This document shows positions 30,891 to 41,138 of a stretch of DNA of 64,000 nucleotides, piece by piece. Source of the DNA: Thermoanaerobaculia bacterium (GTDB lineage: Bacteria > Acidobacteriota > Thermoanaerobaculia > Multivoradales > UBA5704); assembly GCA_044226625.1 (NCBI GenBank), contig JBGAGQ010000005.1:96001-160000 (forward strand). The letters run 5' to 3'. The stretch's first letter is position 1, and every line of letters begins with the position of its first letter. The notes beneath the pieces are model-generated. The model saw only the letters and a program-made list of their open reading frames with translations, did not search any database and was not told the DNA's origin. The translations under genes were made by a program, and so were the position numbers.

Positions 30891-31262
30891 ATGGCGAAAC
30901 GTGCCGCTGATGATCCCGGCAGGTTGATCCACGAGGTCATCCGAACCCTGACGATCGCGCCGGCCTACACCCGGCCCTCTCTGCGCCGGGCGATCGTCGC
31001 GCGAAGCGGTGCGAGTGCCGGCGTCGCGCCGCCCGGGCCCGATGAGATCCCCGCCGAGCTTCTGGATTTCGTCGACAAGATCGCCGAGCGAGCGACCGAG
31101 GTGACGGACGAGGACTTCGCCACCCTCTCGGCCCGCGGCTATACGGTCGATCAGCTGTTCGACGTCGTCCTGGCCGCCTCGCTCGGCGCGAGCCACGCCC
31201 GCCTGGAGCGTGGCCTCGGTGCCCTCGCACTCGCCCTCGAACAACTCGCCAAGGAGCCTTGA
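30891..31262 (+). CDS. Carboxymuconolactone decarboxylase/AhpD-like protein lacking CxxC
   Basis: FVDKIA..A.EVTDEDF..L...GYT.DQLFDVVLAASLGA...RLE.GL pattern; AGGAG SD. Confidence 0.7.
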   Translation: MAKRAADDPGRLIHEVIRTLTIAPAYTRPSLRRAIVARSGASAGVAPPGPDEIPAELLDFVDKIAERATEVTDEDFATLSARGYTVDQLFDVVLAASLGASHARLERGLGALALALEQLAKEP

Positions 31263-31267
31263 AATCG

Positions 31268-31861
31268 ATGCGTCTTCCTCTGCGTCAGAAACTCTCGTTC
31301 CTGCAGCGTCTGATCCTGCGCGTCGTCGTGGCGAAGATGGGCTTCGAGCCCGGGCCGATCACCATCGGCTCGTACCGCAAGCGGTTCGTCGGCGCAAAGT
31401 TCACCCGGGCGCTCGAAGCCGCGATGATCGCCGCGAAGCACTGGCGTCGCGAGGAGACCGAGCTGTTCGCCGCGTTCGTCTCCAACTTGAATACCTGCAC
31501 CTTCTGACTGGGTTGTCACGCCGCGGTCGCGGCGCACGGAATCGCTCAAGAAACGCTCGCGACGGTCTTGTCCGACTGGCGGACCGCGCCGCTTCCCGAG
31601 CGGACGAAGTTGGTCCTCGGCTTGTTGGAGAAGCTGACGCTCGAACCGGGAGAGGTCGGGGCGGATGACGTGAGACCGCTGCTCGCGGCGGGTATCGAGC
31701 CCGAGGCGATCCGCGAGGCGCTCCACGTCCTTTTTCTCTTCTCCACGCTCAACCGCTGGGCCGACACCCTCGACTTCGAGCGCCCGCTGGCCGGCAACTA
31801 CGCGCCGACCGGCAAGTTCCTGTTCGAGAAGGGGTACATGGGCGGGGTGCTGCCAGGGTAG
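31268..31861 (+). CDS. AhpD-like alkylhydroperoxidase, probable selenoprotein (UGA at 31505-31507 read as Sec)
   Basis: ELFAAFVS.LN.CTF[TGA]LGCH continues in frame into KLTLEP...F...NRWADTLDF; TGA sits at the second Cys of the AhpD CxxCxxxH motif. Confidence 0.8.
31505..31537 (+). promoter_or_regulatory. Bacterial SECIS-like hairpin
   Basis: cgccgc-GGTC-gcggcg (31519-31534), loop 17 nt after the UGA, extendable by gt/ac pairs; the GGUC loop resembles the E. coli fdhF SECIS. Confidence 0.7.
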
Positions 31862-31881: not shown

Positions 31882-34473
31882 TTACAGCCGCGGATCGACC
31901 GGCTCGCTTTCGAGCGCGAGGACGCCGAAGGCGCACTCGTGAACGCGGTAGAGCGGCTCGCGGCGCACGAATCGTTCGAGCCCTTCGAGGCCGAGGGCGA
32001 ACTCGCGCAACGCGAGCGACCTCTTCGCCGCGACCGCGCGCTTTTTGAGCCGGACGAGGTTCTCCTCCGCCGTGTACTCCGGGCCGTAGATGATCCGAAG
32101 GTACTCGCGCCCCCGGCACTTGATGGCTGGCTGAGCGAGCCTTCGCTTGCCGGGGGAGAGGAAACTCCGCGGCTTGACCACCATCCCCTCGCCTCCCCGG
32201 GCGGTCAGATCGAGCCACCAGGCGATCGCCGCTTCGACCTCGGTCGAATCTTCGAGGTCGACGAGGCGGTGCGGCGTAGCGACGATCAGGGCGGGGTCGG
32301 CCGCGGCGAGGCGGCCGAGACGTTCGAGATGCCAGAGATGGTCGCGATCCGCGTGGACCCTGCCTTCCGACGCAAGCAGATGGAACGGCGCGAGCCGAAG
32401 ATCGGCCAGAGAGGCGACCGGCCAGACGTAGCGGCGGTAGGCCTCGACGAAGCCCTCGATCCGACCTAGACGTTCCCGGCTCGCCGCGGCGAGAGGAGCC
32501 GCGTCGGCGAGTCGTTCGGCCGTCTTCTCGATCGCGGCGTGGGTATGCGCGAGAGCGGAACGGCCGGCAGCGCCCACCGGGGCGTACTGCTGCCGGAGCA
32601 GCTCGAGCGCCTTGGCGGACCACGGCATCAGCTCGGCGTCCAGGAGCAGCCAGTCGGTCTCCAACTCGTCCCACAGGTCGGCCTCGCCCGCCGCCTTCGC
32701 CAAGCGGACGAGGAGCTCGCGCTCCAGCATCGGATCGGAAAAGAACGGGCGGCCGGTGCGCGTGAGACAGACCCCCAGACGCGGCGACGGCCCGAACCGT
32801 CGCGGCGCCGCGTCCTCGGTCCGGCAGAGGACCACGACCACCCGCGACCCCATGTGCTTTTCTTCGCAGACGACCTCGCGAACCCCCTCTCCCGCATAGT
32901 AGGCGAACGCCTGGTCGGGATGCTCCAGAAACCCGGGGTGGGGTGACGTCTCGACGGGCGCCATGGTCGGTGGCAGGTAGATCATCCAGCGCGGATCGAC
33001 CGCGAAGCGCGAGACCGCTTCGAGCGCCGCGGCGGAGTTGCCCTCACGGATCGCGATCCGCCCGAGACAGGCGGTCTCGATCGAGCGCGCTCCCGCGACG
33101 TCCGAAAGATCGAGGAGGCCTTCGAATCCTTTCCGCTGAGTTTCTGTGGGTCCACCCGTCGGTGTCGCGGCCGAACCGGTCGCCGCGGTCGCTGAGGAAG
33201 CGCCGAGCGGTCGGACCGGCTCGCAATAGACCTGGCGGGCGGCGACCGAGACGATCTCCATCTCCGGGTAGCGCAAGGCGGTGAGCCGGCCTCCGAAGAC
33301 GCAGCCCGTGTCCACGTTGATCGTTCCGTTGATCCATTCCGGTTCGAGCACCGGTGTGTGCCCGTAGACCACTCGAGCTCGCCCTCGATAGTCGTCGGCC
33401 CAGGGATAGCGGACGGGGAGGCCGAGCTCGTCCGTTTCGCCCGTCGTTTCGCCGAAGAGGGCGAAGCTGCGCACCGCGCCGGAAGAGCGTCCCTGCATCT
33501 CTTCCTTCATGCCCGCGTGCGCGACGACCAACCGTCCGCCGTCGAGCACGTAGTGGCTCACCAGGCCGCCGAGAAACGCCGCGATCGCCTCGCGCCGGTC
33601 CGCGGCCAGGGCCTCCATCTGCGCGAGCGATTCGGCGAGCCCGTGGGAGATCCGCACCTGCTGGCCCCGCAACGCCTTTTCGAGCTTCACGTCGTGGTTG
33701 CCGGGGATGCACAGGGCGGTGCCCGCCGCCGTCATTCCCATCGCCAGGTCGAGCACGTCGACGACGCGCGGGCCTCGGTCGACCAGATCGCCCAGGAAGA
33801 CGAGAGTCCGCCCTTCCGGATGGCGCGCCGACGGACCCCCCGCCTCGTTCGTCTCGAACCGCCAGCCGAGCCGCTCCATCAGCTCGGCGAGCTCGTCGTA
33901 GCAGCCATGAACGTCGCCCACGATGTCGAACGGCCCGGTGACCTCGGGCTTGCGGGTCCACAGCGCGCGGCGCTCGACCGTCGCGGAGTCCGCCGCCTCT
34001 TCCGACGTGAAGCGGTAGACGTGTCGAAACCCCTCGCGACCGAGCCCGCGGAGCGAGCGGCGCAGCTGCTGGGACTGGTTCCGCACGACGTGCGGCCCGA
34101 GCTCGCGGTCGGTTCGATTCCGGTTGCGATCGACGCAGACCCGTTCCGGCAGGTCGAACACGATCGCCACGGCGAACACGTGGTATTTCCGAGCCAGCTC
34201 GATCAGAGGTTTCCTCGCCTCGGGCTGGACGTTGGTCGCGTCGATCACGGTCAGACGTCCCAGCGCGAGACGCCTCGCCGCGACGAGATGAAGCAGCTCG
34301 AAGGCGTGGGGTGTCGCGGTCTGATCGTTTTCGTCGTCCGCCACGAGCCCGCGAAAATAATCGGACGAGAGCACCTCGGTGGGACGGAACAAGCGCCGCG
34401 CGAACGTCGATTTGCCGGAGCCGGACGGGCCGACCAACAACACCAGGGAGAGCTCGGGAATCGGCAGGTTCAT
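31882..34473 (-). CDS. pnkp: Bacterial polynucleotide kinase-phosphatase-ligase Pnkp (RNA repair)
   Basis: P-loop GPSGSGKS, metallophosphoesterase GDVHG/GDLVDRG/GNHD, ligase motif EEKHMGSR, C-terminal ESEPVDPRL; ATG overlaps the hen1 stop. Confidence 0.93.
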   Translation of the reverse strand: MNLPIPELSLVLLVGPSGSGKSTFARRLFRPTEVLSSDYFRGLVADDENDQTATPHAFELLHLVAARRLALGRLTVIDATNVQPEARKPLIELARKYHVFAVAIVFDLPERVCVDRNRNRTDRELGPHVVRNQSQQLRRSLRGLGREGFRHVYRFTSEEAADSATVERRALWTRKPEVTGPFDIVGDVHGCYDELAELMERLGWRFETNEAGGPSARHPEGRTLVFLGDLVDRGPRVVDVLDLAMGMTAAGTALCIPGNHDVKLEKALRGQQVRISHGLAESLAQMEALAADRREAIAAFLGGLVSHYVLDGGRLVVAHAGMKEEMQGRSSGAVRSFALFGETTGETDELGLPVRYPWADDYRGRARVVYGHTPVLEPEWINGTINVDTGCVFGGRLTALRYPEMEIVSVAARQVYCEPVRPLGASSATAATGSAATPTGGPTETQRKGFEGLLDLSDVAGARSIETACLGRIAIREGNSAAALEAVSRFAVDPRWMIYLPPTMAPVETSPHPGFLEHPDQAFAYYAGEGVREVVCEEKHMGSRVVVVLCRTEDAAPRRFGPSPRLGVCLTRTGRPFFSDPMLERELLVRLAKAAGEADLWDELETDWLLLDAELMPWSAKALELLRQQYAPVGAAGRSALAHTHAAIEKTAERLADAAPLAAASRERLGRIEGFVEAYRRYVWPVASLADLRLAPFHLLASEGRVHADRDHLWHLERLGRLAAADPALIVATPHRLVDLEDSTEVEAAIAWWLDLTARGGEGMVVKPRSFLSPGKRRLAQPAIKCRGREYLRIIYGPEYTAEENLVRLKKRAVAAKRSLALREFALGLEGLERFVRREPLYRVHECAFGVLALESEPVDPRL

Positions 34474-35870
34474 CGTGCCGCCTTCTCGGGCGCCTCGCCG
34501 TCGATTCGGGAGAACACGGCGAGCTGCGACGGCGCGCCGAGCTCCGGATCCTCGGGGCCGAGCGGCGAAATCTCGGCCCGGTATCCGAACCGTGTCGCGA
34601 CGCCCTCGGCCCAGGCGGCAAGCTCCGAGCGGCTCCACTCGAACCGATGGTCGCGATGGCGGAAGCGGCCCGCGGGCAGGCCGGGGAAGAGGCGGTTGTA
34701 GTCGGCGTTCGGGGTCGTGAGGACCACGGTCGCCGGACGCGCGAGCTCGAAGACCACCCTTTCGAGCGCGCCGAGCCGCGCGAGGTCGACGTGCTCGATC
34801 ACCTCGACCAACGCCGCGGCGTCGTAACCCGAGAGGCGTCGGTCGCGATAGGTGAGCGCGCCGTGGAGAAGCCTGACTCGAGCGCGCTTGCGCTCCGGGA
34901 GCCGGTCGAGCTTGAGCCGTTCCTCCGCCACCTGGAGGGCGGCCGAGCTCGCGTCGAGGCCGACGATCTCTTCGAACTGGCGGTCCTCGAGCAGACGCCG
35001 GATCAGCTTGCCTTCGCCGCAACCGAGGTCGAGCACTCTCCGCGCCCCGGCGGCGCGCAACGTTTCGACCACCCGGTCGAGGCGGACGTCGTGGAGTCTC
35101 ATCGGAACCTCGAGCGTCGCCTCGCGCTCGTCGGCCCCCTGGGCGTCTTCTTCCTCGCCTTCCCCGAGCCGGGAGAGCGCGCTCGCGACGAGCGGACGGA
35201 AGCGGAGATAGCGGCGGGCGATCGCCTCGCGCTCGGGATGCGCGGCAAGCCAACCTTCGCCGTGGCGCAGGAGCTTTTCTACCTCCTCGTTGCCGAGCCA
35301 GTAGTGTTTCTCGGTATCCAGAACGGGGATCAGAACGTAGAGGTGGGCGAGCGCGTCGGACAGACGCTGGGTCGCCTCGAGGCGAACGTCGAAATAGGGA
35401 CTGACTCCCCACTCGGGGAACCGCTCGTCGAGCGGCAACGCGCGCGCCTCGACCTGATAGCCGAGCGGCTCGAAGAGGCGGCGCAGGAAATCCTCCCCGC
35501 CACGGCAAGGGAGCGCGGCCACCTCGATCTCGAGCGGGATCGCCGTGGCGGCCAGCTCCGGCCGATCGCGGCAGCGGCCGCCGAGCGCGCTGCCGTAGAT
35601 TCGGGCGATCGCGACCGAAAGAAACGACGACGCGGCGTAGGGCCGGTCGTTGACGTACTGCGCCTCGGCGGCGTTCCGGCCGCGAACGAGGGCGACCGGA
35701 TCGACCTCGATCGTGAGCGCCGCGGTGCAGCGGGTTTCGGTTGCCTCGGGGAAGAAGACCTGAGCGACGCCGAACGGCAGGTCGAAGCGATGGATCCGCT
35801 CGGGATGCTTGTGGAGCAGGAAACCGAGATCGGTCGCGGGCGAGGCGGTGGTCGAAAGCGACAGAAACAT
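34470..35870 (-). CDS. hen1: 3'-terminal RNA ribose 2'-O-methyltransferase Hen1
   Basis: PATDLGFLLHKHP, YVNDRPYAASS, VLDLGCGEG, EVIEH, TTPN..YN, RHRDHRFEW. Confidence 0.95.
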   Translation of the reverse strand: MFLSLSTTASPATDLGFLLHKHPERIHRFDLPFGVAQVFFPEATETRCTAALTIEVDPVALVRGRNAAEAQYVNDRPYAASSFLSVAIARIYGSALGGRCRDRPELAATAIPLEIEVAALPCRGGEDFLRRLFEPLGYQVEARALPLDERFPEWGVSPYFDVRLEATQRLSDALAHLYVLIPVLDTEKHYWLGNEEVEKLLRHGEGWLAAHPEREAIARRYLRFRPLVASALSRLGEGEEEDAQGADEREATLEVPMRLHDVRLDRVVETLRAAGARRVLDLGCGEGKLIRRLLEDRQFEEIVGLDASSAALQVAEERLKLDRLPERKRARVRLLHGALTYRDRRLSGYDAAALVEVIEHVDLARLGALERVVFELARPATVVLTTPNADYNRLFPGLPAGRFRHRDHRFEWSRSELAAWAEGVATRFGYRAEISPLGPEDPELGAPSQLAVFSRIDGEAPEKAAR

Positions 35871-35909: not shown

Positions 35910-38225
35910 CTACGCCGCCGGCTCGACCGCCTCGACGTAGCCGCACCCCTCGGTGTTGCAGACCAGTTGGGTGCCGTGGCGCTTGGTGGTCTTTTCCATC
36001 AGGAACTGCGCGCCGCACGAGGGGCAGGGCTTCGCGACCGGCTTGTTCCAGAGGGCGTTCTTGCAGTCGGGGTAGCGGCTGCACGAATAGAAGATCTTGC
36101 CCCGCCGGGAGCGCTTCTCGACCATCTCTCCCTTGCCGCATTCGGCGCAGGGAACGCCGGTCGGTTTCGGCGCAGCCGGGGCCGGGCCGGTTCGGCGGAG
36201 GTTCTTGCACTCGGGGTAGCCCGTGCAGCCGTAGAACGTTCCGAAGCGGCTGCGGCGGAGCGCCATTGGCTTGCCGCACTGCTCGCAGGGCGGAATCTCC
36301 TCGGCCTGCGCCTCGGAGGCTCCTTCCGCGGGAGCTTCCTCTTCCGTACCGGTGTCCACGTTACGCGTGTACTTGCAGGTCGGATAGTTGGTGCACGCGA
36401 TGAAGGCGCCGTAGCGGCCGAAGCGCATCACGAGCGGAGCGCCGTCCTCCGGGCAGAGCTCGCCGGTCGGCACGCCGTCCTTCTTGACGTTCGGCATCGT
36501 CTCGCCCGCGAGCGCCAGGTCGCGGGTGAATTTCTCGTCGAACTCGCCGATCGCCTGCTTCCAGTCCATCGACCCTTCTTCGATCTTGTCCAGCTCCTCT
36601 TCGAGCGAGGCCGTGTACCCCTCGTTGATCACGTCGTTGAAGCTCCCCTGGAGCATTTTGTTGACGATCTTGCCGAGGGGAGTCGGGCGGAATCGCGATT
36701 CGAGCTTTTCGACGTAGTTGCGATCGGTGATCGTCGAGAGGATCGCGGCGTAGGTCGACGGGCGGCCGATGCCGTTTTCTTCGAGCGCCTTGACCAACGT
36801 CGCCTCGCTGTATTGCGCGGGCGGTTGGGTGAACTTCTGCTCCGAGGCCAGGCGGACGAGCTTCAACGTCTGCCCCTCTTCGAGCGGCGGGAGCATCCCC
36901 TCCGCCGCCTCGGCCTCGTCGCCGTCTTTTCCCTTGCCCCCTTCCGCCTCTTCCGGGGTCTCGCGATAGACCGCGAGGAAGCCGGCGCGCTTCAAGACCT
37001 TTCCCTGCGCGCGGAGCGTGTACTGCCCCTGGTCGCCCGCTGCGATGTCGGCCTGGGTGACGTCGAACACCGCGGGGAGCATCTGGGAGGCGACGAAGCG
37101 ATCCCAGATCAGCTTGTAGAGCTTGAGCTCGTCCGGCTTCAAGAAGTCCTTCACCGCGTCGGGCGAGAGGTCGAAGCTGGTCGGACGGATCGCCTCGTGG
37201 GCGTCCTGGGCGTCTTTCTTGCTCCGATAGCGGTTCGGTTTGTCGGGCAGCGCGCTCGCGCCGTAGGTCGCCTCGATCATCTCGCGGACGCCGACGAGCG
37301 CCTCTTCCGAGACGCGGGTCGAATCGGTTCGCATGTAGGTGATCAGACCCACGGCGCCGCGGTCGCCGATCTCCCGGCCTTCATAGAGCCCCTGGGCGAG
37401 CGCCATCGTGCGCTTGACCGAGAAGCCGTGACGCCGCGCCGCCTCCTGCTGCAGGCGGCTGGTGATGAACGGCGGGCTCGGACGCTGGAGCGATTCCTTG
37501 CGCTCGATCGATCGGACGACGAACTTGCCCTTTTCGAGATCGCCGACGATCCGCGCCGCGTCGTCGCCGTTGCCCACCTCGGCCTTCTCTTTGCCGATCC
37601 GGGAAAGCCGGGCATGGAACTGCGGCGCCTTGCCCGCGTCGAGGTCCGCGCCGAGCAACCAGTATTCGACCGCCTGGAACGCGTCGATCTCGTCTTGCCG
37701 CTCACAGACCATCTTGAGCGCGACCGACTGGACGCGGCCGGCCGAGAGCCCCTGCTTGACCTTCTCCCAGAGCAGCGGCGAGAGGCGGAATCCCATCATC
37801 CGGTCGAGCACGCGACGCGCCTGCTGGGCGTCGACCTTGGCGCCGTCGATCTCGCGCGGCTCGGCGAGCGCCTTGAGCACGGCGTTCTTGGTGATCTCGT
37901 TGAAGGTCACCCTTTTCACCGCGGTGGGATCTTTGTCCAAGACCTCGGCGATATGCCAGGCGATCGCCTCTCCTTCGCGATCGGGGTCGGGCGCGAGATA
38001 GATCATGTCGGCCGTCTTCGCCGCGGCGCGCAGCTTCTTGACCACTTCCTTCTTGTCGGCGAGGACGGCGTACTTCGGCTCGTAGTTCGCGCCGAGGCCC
38101 ATGTCCTTCTTCACCAGGTCGCGGATGTGGCCGAGCGACGCCTCGACGGTGTATTGCCGCCCCAGGAACTTCTTGAGCGTACGCGTCTTGGCGGGGCTTT
38201 CGACGATCACCAGATTCTTAGCCAT
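35910..38225 (-). CDS. topA: DNA topoisomerase I
   Basis: LVIVESPAK, DPDREGEAI, SAGRVQS, ITYMRTDS, GIGRPSTY, C-terminal C4 zinc ribbons. Confidence 0.97.
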   Translation of the reverse strand: MAKNLVIVESPAKTRTLKKFLGRQYTVEASLGHIRDLVKKDMGLGANYEPKYAVLADKKEVVKKLRAAAKTADMIYLAPDPDREGEAIAWHIAEVLDKDPTAVKRVTFNEITKNAVLKALAEPREIDGAKVDAQQARRVLDRMMGFRLSPLLWEKVKQGLSAGRVQSVALKMVCERQDEIDAFQAVEYWLLGADLDAGKAPQFHARLSRIGKEKAEVGNGDDAARIVGDLEKGKFVVRSIERKESLQRPSPPFITSRLQQEAARRHGFSVKRTMALAQGLYEGREIGDRGAVGLITYMRTDSTRVSEEALVGVREMIEATYGASALPDKPNRYRSKKDAQDAHEAIRPTSFDLSPDAVKDFLKPDELKLYKLIWDRFVASQMLPAVFDVTQADIAAGDQGQYTLRAQGKVLKRAGFLAVYRETPEEAEGGKGKDGDEAEAAEGMLPPLEEGQTLKLVRLASEQKFTQPPAQYSEATLVKALEENGIGRPSTYAAILSTITDRNYVEKLESRFRPTPLGKIVNKMLQGSFNDVINEGYTASLEEELDKIEEGSMDWKQAIGEFDEKFTRDLALAGETMPNVKKDGVPTGELCPEDGAPLVMRFGRYGAFIACTNYPTCKYTRNVDTGTEEEAPAEGASEAQAEEIPPCEQCGKPMALRRSRFGTFYGCTGYPECKNLRRTGPAPAAPKPTGVPCAECGKGEMVEKRSRRGKIFYSCSRYPDCKNALWNKPVAKPCPSCGAQFLMEKTTKRHGTQLVCNTEGCGYVEAVEPAA

Positions 38226-39965: not shown

Positions 39966-41138
39966 TCAGGCGCGACGATAGAGGCCGCCCGGCAACCGGC
40001 TCGCCCGGCCGAGCAGCTCCAGCTCGAGCAGGGTCGCGAGCACGCGGTCGATCGGCGCGCCGGTCGCCGTGGCCAGATCTTCGGGAGCGCGATCGAAGCC
40101 GCGCACCATGGCCTCGAGGAGCGCGCCGGCGAGGCCCGGGAGGGGCGGCTCGGTGAATTGAGGCTCGGGTTCGCCGGGAGGGGGCGAGGAGGGTCCGCGC
40201 GGCCCGACCAGGTCGAGGAGATCGTTCGGATGCTGGGCGAGGAACGCTCCGTCGCGCAGCAGTGCGTGCGGCCCCAGGGATCGCTCCGAAAAGATAGGGC
40301 CCGGCACGGCGAACAGATCGCGCCCGAGCTCGAGCGCCCAACGCGCGGTGGACAGAGAACCGGAGCGCGCCGCCGCCTGGACCACGAGGACCGCCTGGCT
40401 GAGCGCGGCGATCGATCGGTTCCGGACCGGGAAGTTCCAGGTGCGCGGCTCGTAGCCGAAAGGAAATTCGGTGACCAGGGCACCCCGCGCGGCGATCGCG
40501 CGGCCGAGCTGGCCGTGGCCGGTGGGATAGTCGACCCCCAAGCCGCACCCCAAGACCGCGATCGTCCGGCCGGCCGGCGGCACCAGGGCGCCGCGGTGCG
40601 CCGCGGCGTCGATGCCCCGCGCGAAGCCCGAGACCACGGCGACCTCGCGCTCGGCGAGCGCGGAGGCGAACAGCTGGGCGACCTCCAGTCCATAGGAATC
40701 GGCACGCCGCGATCCGACGATCGCGACCGCGGGTCCCGCGGTCAGCTCTCCGGCGACGGTGAGGACGGGCGGGGCGAGCGGCAGCTGGCCGAGCACGGCC
40801 GGAAATTCCGGGTCGAGGCGGGTGACCAGCCGGCCGCCGAGCGTGGCCGCCTTCTCGCGCTCGGCCCTACCCGTCTCACGTGCCCGAGGTAATAGAGAGA
40901 GTGCGGTTTCGAGCTGGCGCCTGGGGATCCCGATCTCGCGCGCGATGAGCTCGGTCGTGAGCGCCGTCCCGGTCGCGCCGGTCCAAAACTCGAGGTCCTC
41001 CGCCAGGCGGGCGAACGCCGTGCGGGAGAGGCGGGTGTCCGCGTGTAGGCCGATCAGCAGGTCCGAGTCGGGGTGGAGAGCGGGGACCGGGGGGCTAGGT
41101 GGGGGCGGGGTCTCCCGCGCGTGTTTCGTCGCTTTCAT
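39966..41138 (-). CDS. dprA: DNA-processing protein DprA
   Basis: VAIVGSR, VVSGFARGIDAAAH, FP.RNR.IA.LS, SGSLSTA..A...GR, C-terminal winged helix; upstream of topA. Confidence 0.93.
   Translation of the reverse strand: MKATKHARETPPPPSPPVPALHPDSDLLIGLHADTRLSRTAFARLAEDLEFWTGATGTALTTELIAREIGIPRRQLETALSLLPRARETGRAEREKAATLGGRLVTRLDPEFPAVLGQLPLAPPVLTVAGELTAGPAVAIVGSRRADSYGLEVAQLFASALAEREVAVVSGFARGIDAAAHRGALVPPAGRTIAVLGCGLGVDYPTGHGQLGRAIAARGALVTEFPFGYEPRTWNFPVRNRSIAALSQAVLVVQAAARSGSLSTARWALELGRDLFAVPGPIFSERSLGPHALLRDGAFLAQHPNDLLDLVGPRGPSSPPPGEPEPQFTEPPLPGLAGALLEAMVRGFDRAPEDLATATGAPIDRVLATLLELELLGRASRLPGGLYRRA

Follow-up and report, generated by a model that had tools for sequence, protein, structure and literature searches.

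In this study, we analysed a stretch of 64,000 nucleotides from a Thermoanaerobaculia bacterium (assembly GCA_044226625.1, contig JBGAGQ010000005.1, positions 96,001 to 160,000 of the forward strand), which in its full length is referred to here as the window, and within it a gene at 31268–31861 that is predicted to encode a selenoprotein of the AhpD-like group. With table 11, two short open reading frames (ORFs) are obtained at this place, 31259–31507 (82 aa) and 31568–31861 (97 aa), both on the plus strand and in the same frame. An earlier note on this DNA had observed that the two are parted only by a TGA and had proposed a single selenocysteine (Sec)-containing protein of about 197 aa. Both points hold: when the TGA is read through, 31268–31861 gives 197 residues, and the sole TGA falls at residue 80, in a conserved column and in the context ..S-N-L-N-T-C-T-F-U-L-G-C-H-A-A-V.. 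(U, Sec). From the sequence evidence set out below, the two ORFs are best read as one gene for a Sec-containing AhpD-like enzyme that standard callers split, and we put the probability that 31268–31861 is a genuine Sec-decoding gene at about 0.9. A small gene for a Cys-free protein, termed the partner here, lies directly upstream, and a hairpin that we take to be a selenocysteine insertion sequence (SECIS) follows the TGA.

The read-through protein was searched against 92 genomes of the same bacterial family, with matches in 86 of them. Each of the 46 strongest matches (E <= 1.4e-20, from 42 of the 92 genomes) contains a TGA, and in the first 30 loci, for which the column was checked, the TGA in every case occupies one and the same column of the motif N-x-C-x-F-U-x-x-x-H. 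Among 301 sampled genomes of the phylum there were five more, from other families, with matches at E <= 1e-18, all five with TGA at the same column, as has a metagenome-assembled genome (MAG) labelled Thermoleophilia. A further search, for related loci in a collection of genome contigs, gave three. These 30 same-family loci, five other-family loci and one Thermoleophilia-labelled MAG make up the 36 subfamily genes counted below, and the CxxU motif proposed in the earlier note, with C77 and the U80 column, is found in all 36. At the same column, four full-length homologues in the public collection (35–44% identical) have Cys within C-x-F-C-x-x-x-H, and in each of the 16 paralogues retrieved from this bacterial family the codon there is TGC or TGT; a C-x-x-C-x-x-x-H match on the opposite strand of locus L065 was spurious and was dropped from the paralogue count. 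The alternation of Cys and TGA among homologues to which the earlier note had pointed is thus seen.

As TGA is one base from TGC or TGT, the codon might in principle be a nonsense mutation in a pseudogene or an assembly or sequencing error. We see next to no chance of this: TGA is retained at the column in 36/36 genes from separate genomes with 36–77% protein identity, and alignment A4 has 28 invariant columns that are spread along the whole length, so that both halves are conserved as protein. Moreover, a DNA contig (covering 31335–31627) and an RNA-library contig (31375–31623) from two other studies both keep the TGA, which speaks against the TGC or TGT reads that the earlier note had considered; sequencing runs X3 and X7 do not span it, and the small word shares found in X5 and X7 served no claim on habitat.

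A complete machinery for Sec is encoded in the window genome (6.6 Mb, 133 contigs), and the sel genes named in the earlier note are present. The tRNA-Sec scores 70.9 bits, where the gathering score is 47, and has the anticodon TCA according to ARAGORN, and selA (432 bits), selB (348 bits; 315 + 31 bits in one frame) and selD (333 bits) are each over the curated cut-off; selD itself contains one in-frame TGA. It could be argued that the UGA is read through as some other residue (Trp, Cys or Gly), through a near-cognate or suppressor tRNA or a reassigned code, and that the hairpin merely slows termination, since UGA leaks more than any other stop codon and read-through can be aided by a hairpin downstream. 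We consider this very unlikely. TGA is an ordinary stop in these genomes, ending the partner gene in 30/30 loci and the orthologues themselves in 10/30, the full Sec machinery is encoded, and the position is that of the redox-active Cys. In addition, the hairpin has the spacing and the G-first loop of a bacterial SECIS and the same geometry as the one in selD of the same genome.

The reading in which the TGA is a true stop between two small genes, one for a 79-residue N-terminal protein and one for a separately started C-terminal protein of 97–117 residues, agrees with the prediction of exactly two ORFs with table 11 and with the public collections, in which 117-residue C-terminal fragments of orthologues start from the codon after the TGA (P0002–P0005). 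In the two nearest orthologues this codon is GTG. In the window the TGA is followed by CTG, a codon that the ORF listing does not count as a start (it uses ATG, GTG and TTG), and the next in-frame start is the TTG at 31568, 20 codons on. A conserved independent downstream start, a possibility raised in the earlier note, was not found; instead, an ATG start with the sequence 'MRL' lies 79–81 codons 5' of the TGA in 30/30 family genes, with 112–117 codons after the TGA. The break also always falls inside C-x-x-[C/U]-x-x-x-H, at the column where the four homologues and 16 paralogues have Cys, and a split would part Cys77 from His84. Finally, the read-through protein is modelled as a single AhpD-like domain, and the hairpin is conserved in the TGA forms only. 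Two separate genes are therefore highly improbable, and we return to a single Sec-decoding gene, the features of which are collected in Table 1.

Table 1. Features of the predicted selenoprotein gene and its upstream partner (window coordinates)
Feature	Position	Strand	Remarks
Upstream partner gene	30891..31262	+	123 codons and TGA stop; predicted Cys-free degenerate AhpD-like protein; first gene of the proposed two-gene unit
Shine–Dalgarno-like AAGGAG	31251..31256	+	11 nt 5' of the ATG; read from the sequence
Selenoprotein coding sequence (predicted)	31268..31861	+	ATG start at 31268; 197 codons, then TAG stop (31859–31861); AhpD-like/TIGR01926-like
Glu65 codon	31460..31462	+	12 residues N-terminal of Cys77; place of Glu118 in M. 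tuberculosis AhpD; invariant in alignment A4
Cys77 codon	31496..31498	+	First residue of C-x-x-U; presumed resolving Cys; invariant in 28/28 sequences and 36/36 motifs
UGA read as Sec80 (predicted)	31505..31507	+	TGA column in 36/36; Cys in 4 database homologues and 16/16 paralogues
Cys83 codon (extra Cys)	31514..31516	+	Present here, yet in 5/36 subfamily genes
His84 codon	31517..31519	+	C-x-x-U-x-x-x-H; invariant, CAC every time
SECIS hairpin (candidate)	31519..31534	+	Stem 31519–31524 with 31529–31534; loop GGUC 31525–31528; 11-nt spacer after the UGA

The earlier note had described a 6-bp GC stem with a GGUC loop 17 nt past the UGA; this hairpin is there, and its conservation in 36/36 genes backs the reading as a SECIS. 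It consists of six G-C or C-G pairs that start 11 nt after the UGA, and across the 36 in-frame aligned genes 215 of the 216 stem cells are paired. Two pairs show compensatory changes: at 17:28, 29 genes have G-U and seven have C-G, and at 18:27, 34 have C-G and two have U-A. Pair 16:29 is G-U in one gene; the loop reads GGUC in 34/36 and AGUU and CACG in one gene each. The same pairing picture was obtained for the first 30 genes, for which shuffle and slide controls were included. A longer stem is not indicated: of the lower-stem pairs given by RNAalifold (12:35 and 13:34), pair 12:35 is broken in 5/30 sequences, and the alternative lower pairs 12:33, 13:32 and 14:31 are formed in 5, 3 and 3 of 36. 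We therefore limit the claim to the 6-bp upper stem.

In the minimal SECIS of Escherichia coli fdhF, the upper stem–loop must start 11 nt past the UGA and has the apical loop GGUC, of which a G and the U touch SelB. The element described here shares this spacer and loop with the fdhF SECIS, whereas its stem sequence differs and a bulged U is not evident. The same geometry after the UGA was also found in two unrelated selenoprotein genes of the window genome. In selD (C93:45915–46859 (+), locus L018; ..T-G-G-U-A-A-K-V-G..), a stem of 6 bp begins 11 nt past the UGA, at position 15, with the loop GGG at position 21. The gene at C3:40584–41360 (+), with its TGA at 40965 in the context ..F-G-S-Y-T-U-P-P-F.., has a 7-bp stem and the loop GGUC at position 21, and we take it, from its motif, to be probably a deiodinase-like/thioredoxin-fold selenoprotein. 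A rigid genome-wide scan (TGA, 17 nt, GGTC loop, stem >= 5 bp) gave four hits, of which the window gene and the deiodinase-like gene look real; the other two (C84 and C126) are without recognizable coding context and were for this reason taken as chance. The published bacterial SECIS (bSECIS) model has a loop of 3–9 nt, a stem of 4–16 bp, a G in the first two loop positions, 16–37 nt from the UGA to the loop and a minimum free energy (MFE) of at most -7.5 kcal/mol (PMC13188914). With a loop of 4 nt starting with GG, a stem of 6 bp, a distance of 17 nt and a core that folds at -10.8 kcal/mol, the hairpin fits these published constraints (PMC13188914).

The stem lies wholly within conserved codons, and third positions are 91% G or C; together with a fold that is not better than that of shuffled sequences, this could mean that the hairpin is a by-product of the conserved peptide (H-G/A-A-V-A-S/A) and of G+C-rich codon bias rather than a functional RNA. 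The codon usage argues otherwise. Among sequences sharing the residue, the degenerate (four- or six-fold) stem codons are represented by one codon per column in 5/5 columns, whereas a single codon is found in 0/62 equally conserved degenerate columns elsewhere in the gene; these 62 columns (Ala, Gly, Val, Pro, Thr, Ser, Leu and Arg) use at least two codons, with a mean modal codon share of 0.68. In the genus of the window organism, Gly-to-Ala and Ser-to-Ala replacements alter both sides of pair 17:28 and the pairing is kept, and the Cys paralogues of the same genomes with a similar peptide (H-A-[AS]-[ATV]-A-R) lack the hairpin in 16/16 cases, with at most 4/6 positions paired. A mere by-product is thus extremely unlikely, and we retain the hairpin as a SECIS. 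Its 18-nt core, CAC GGC GCG GUC GCG UCG, occurs in the Thermoleophilia-labelled MAG (L054:3196–3249) in a form identical to that of most family members. This sharing with a record labelled as another phylum hints at a transfer of the gene with its SECIS or at a very strong constraint.

With regard to the protein, the best NCBIfam match is TIGR01926, 'peroxidase-related enzyme' (70.6 bits, profile positions 12–173 of 178), which all 28 aligned subfamily members match (best E 4.5e-37). The best match of the subfamily profile is Deinococcus radiodurans DR1765 (PDB 6k40, E 6e-36), followed by 2oyo, 3c1l, 2pfx and 2prr. An AlphaFold model of the read-through protein has a predicted local distance difference test (pLDDT) score of 90.5, rising to 96–98 across the junction, and a predicted template modelling (pTM) score of 0.88. 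Compared with 6k40, 2oyo, 2pfx, 3c1l and 2prr, it gives template modelling (TM) scores of 0.67–0.76 at 21–28% identity, with 0.72–0.76 for 6k40, 2pfx and 3c1l; the top 20 Foldseek matches (E <= 0.001) include these five as well as Bmp8 and 2gmy, all with the AhpD-like fold. The model thus predicts an all-helical AhpD-like fold for this protein. E63, E65, C77, F79, C/U80 and H84 are invariant in the 28/28 sequences of alignment A4, in agreement with the active-site motif of the superfamily, C-x-x-C-x-x-x-H with an acidic residue about 12 positions upstream. Within the AhpD-like/carboxymuconolactone decarboxylase (CMD) superfamily, the protein is nearest to the 'peroxidase-related enzyme' group TIGR01926.

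A weak profile match to Mycobacterium tuberculosis AhpD (1gu9) begins at chain residue 118, and if the match is ungapped there, E65, C77, U80 and H84 fall on AhpD residues 118, 130, 133 and 137. In that enzyme, Cys133 is reportedly the nucleophile that attacks AhpC and Cys130 the resolving residue, while Glu118 and His137 are said to provide a proton relay. With Cys133 as the nucleophile, Sec80 would be at the nucleophile position, like the Sec of other CxxU selenoproteins.

Based on this gene anatomy, on the known bacterial mechanism and on homology, the following sequence of events can be proposed. The stretch 30891–31861 (+) would act as a two-gene unit with the selenoprotein gene as the second gene. 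When the ribosome arrives at the UGA at codon 80, SelB with Sec-tRNA(Sec) would bind the 6-bp GGUC-loop hairpin 11 nt downstream, Sec would be inserted and translation would continue to the TAG. Sec80 would then stand where the AhpD motif C-x-x-C-x-x-x-H has its second, nucleophilic Cys, with Glu65 and His84 as the probable proton relay. It would attack an oxidized substrate, either a peroxide or the sulfenate or disulfide of a partner thiol peroxidase, and Cys77 would resolve the adduct to a selenenylsulfide, which may in turn be reduced by some thiol or lipoyl system. The nearest relative that has been characterized gives protection against H2O2 in vivo, whereas the main role of AhpD proper is to reduce a peroxiredoxin. 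Of the 'Sec-containing peroxidase' in the earlier note we retain the Sec and the AhpD family, but not the peroxidase, which is a family label only.

The earlier note had also drawn attention to an additional Cys before the His, giving C-x-x-U-x-x-C-H, and to two alternative selenenylsulfide pairs that this might allow. This arrangement is not conserved: Cys at U+3 is found in 5/36 subfamily genes (the window gene, L027, L028, L029 and L060), with Ser in its place in the two orthologues closest to the window gene (77% and 72% identity). Because of this count, two alternative pairs were ruled out as a conserved mechanism. In the model, Cys83 lies in helix 78–88, one helical turn from Sec80, a geometry in which the protein of the window itself might conceivably form a second selenenylsulfide.

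Several of our observations weigh against a Sec-decoding AhpD-like gene or make it less firm. The TIGR01926 score of 70.6 bits is under the curated cut-off of 81.8, and we have for that reason filed the protein as TIGR01926-like and not as a member by the curated rule; similarly, the Pfam CMD match (PF02627), although real, reaches 18.5 bits with the single sequence and is below the gathering threshold of 23. The MFE of the 66-nt segment is not better than that of shuffles (z +1.0; 169/200 shuffles fold equally well or better), so that thermodynamics was set aside as evidence, and it is by its conservation, not by thermodynamics alone, that the hairpin goes beyond what chance would give in G+C-rich DNA. 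An Rfam scan of 31400–31650 at E <= 10 gave no match. The covariation stems from few events, with C-G at 17:28 in seven sequences, three of them from one genus, and U-A at 18:27 in two, and the distant member L061 has, in addition to its loop CACG, a mismatch at pair 15:30. The RNA-library contig is no proof of transcription. Lastly, genes for AhpC, a peroxiredoxin, a thioredoxin reductase or lipoamide were not found among the eight neighbouring ORFs scanned.

The window genome also contains a second AhpD-like gene with TGA at the same motif column (C100:12708–13085, locus L024, TGA at position 1585 of the locus), which has the motif ..N-R-C-Q-Y-U-L-T-S-H.., 27% identity to the window protein and a 7-bp hairpin with the loop GUU that begins 10 nt past the UGA. 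Most of the approximately 100 weaker matches of the family search likewise have one TGA, and the AhpD-like selenoproteins of these genomes thus form several paralogous groups.

The partner gene is present directly upstream in 30/30 family loci and in 3/6 distant loci (33/36), with a partial hit in a fourth distant locus. Its ATG start is common to the orthologues and its stop is TGA in 30/30; in 27 of the first 30 loci this stop overlaps the ATG of the enzyme gene (ATGA in 23, TGATG in four), and in the genus of the window organism there is a gap of 4–5 nt and no overlap. A search of the 1.2-kb stretches retrieved for the 16 Cys paralogues found no partner gene next to any of them (0/16). The partner protein of the window has no Cys. 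BLASTP of the partner against the enzyme gave nothing significant (E 2.1), and the relation between the two is consequently shown solely by profile comparison, with 87.7% probability in hhalign and alignment to enzyme residues 106–161. Weak matches to TIGR01926 are seen in 23/27 partner members and to TIGR04029 in 10/27 (best E 0.003), and an AlphaFold model (pLDDT 85) finds as its top fold matches exclusively AhpD-like proteins, weakly (E 0.03–0.14, TM score normalized to the query (TMq) 0.58–0.62). By sequence, then, we regard the partner as a remote, Cys-free and apparently degenerate relative of the enzyme family. At least 1510 relatives of it are in the public collection, mostly unnamed or listed as 'hypothetical protein', some labelled 'alkylhydroperoxidase family enzyme', and the named records among them are MAGs labelled Thermoanaerobaculia or Gemmatimonadales.

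The partner gene is tightly coupled to the enzyme gene and its product probably acts with the enzyme. More tentatively, and with rather less than even odds, the Sec enzyme and the Cys-free partner may form an obligate hetero-oligomer in which the partner would be the non-catalytic half or a docking surface for the substrate or reductant. We propose this because the partner is upstream in 33/36 loci, overlaps the enzyme ATG with its stop in 27/30 and was not found at the Cys paralogues, and also because its family is large and nearly unnamed and the identical SECIS core recurs in the Thermoleophilia-labelled MAG. If this were true, we would have an AhpD-like selenoenzyme of two subunits whose spread goes hand in hand with that of its fixed SECIS.

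The gene is real, and not a new kind of system. AhpD-like CxxU proteins were reported as selenoproteins in 2005, with 27 sequences (PMC1088965), and in the GOS (Global Ocean Sampling) data, AhpD-like 1 (COG2128, 299 sequences) and AhpD-like 2 (pfam02627, 70 sequences) are among the most abundant families (PMC2398784). A 2026 review has the entry 'AhpD-like protein, TIGR01926, CxxU' (PMC13188914), and BSepDB offers AhpD-like selenoproteins as a browsable family (PMC13326102). The published proteins from the Sargasso Sea and GOS metagenomes belong to the same superfamily as the window protein and have the same C-x-x-U with Sec as the second residue, widespread Cys homologues and a SECIS just 3' of the UGA. 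The window subfamily differs in its score below the TIGR01926 cut-off, its conserved N-terminal 'MRL..' extension and its adjacent Cys-free partner. DR1765 (6k40), like 2oyo, 2pfx, 3c1l and 2prr from structural genomics ('uncharacterized peroxidase-related protein'), has the E..C-x-x-C-x-x-x-H site in common with the window protein, with Cys where the latter has Sec. A review reports heightened H2O2 sensitivity when DR1765 is knocked out, and that complementation requires the CxxC cysteines (PMC8945050).

M. tuberculosis AhpD (1knc, 1gu9) and the window protein share their fold class and the spacing of Glu..C-x-x-C-x-x-x-H. The distance from AhpD proper is nonetheless large, with 19 bits against the cut-off of 191.95 for TIGR00777, TM scores of 0.51–0.52 for the best-fitting chains (0.44 for one chain) at 11–12% identity, and no ahpC or peroxiredoxin gene among the eight neighbouring ORFs scanned. 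An analogous arrangement may be seen in two families that are presumably encoded side by side: TIGR04030 (perox_Avi_7169, 'alkylhydroperoxidase domain protein'), which the enzyme matches in 28/28 members (best E 4.9e-20), and TIGR04029 (CMD_Avi_7170, 'CMD domain protein'), to which the partner has the weak matches given above. As all scores are far under the cut-offs (31.5 against 233 bits for the window enzyme), this is at most an analogy and not membership.

Since AhpD-like CxxU selenoproteins have been known since 2005, the gene adds little that is new for biology, and the constant Cys-free AhpD-like partner directly upstream is the sole lead beyond what is known, and a modestly new one that could be tested to learn how these enzymes work. 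For annotation the consequences are larger. The gene and its orthologues are in public collections solely as 117-residue fragments, or not at all, and a whole selenoprotein subfamily of this bacterial family, with a gene in 42/92 genomes, is therefore miscalled. Joining the frames would restore a redox enzyme with a predicted Sec at the nucleophilic position, and the unusually rigid SECIS provides a clean search pattern.

The Pfam scan of the eight neighbouring ORFs left four without a match, and the others encode Pnkp, Hen1, topoisomerase I and a radical SAM protein. Upstream, on the minus strand between 25077 and 30678 of the window, are three long ORFs (633, 823 and 610 aa) with no Pfam match at E <= 1e-5. 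On the other side, an RNA-repair pair of Pnkp (with kinase, phosphatase and ligase domains) and the methyltransferase Hen1 (31882–35870 (-)) converges on the selenoprotein gene with 20 nt between the stop codons, and the gene for topoisomerase I (35910–38225 (-)) follows beyond this pair.

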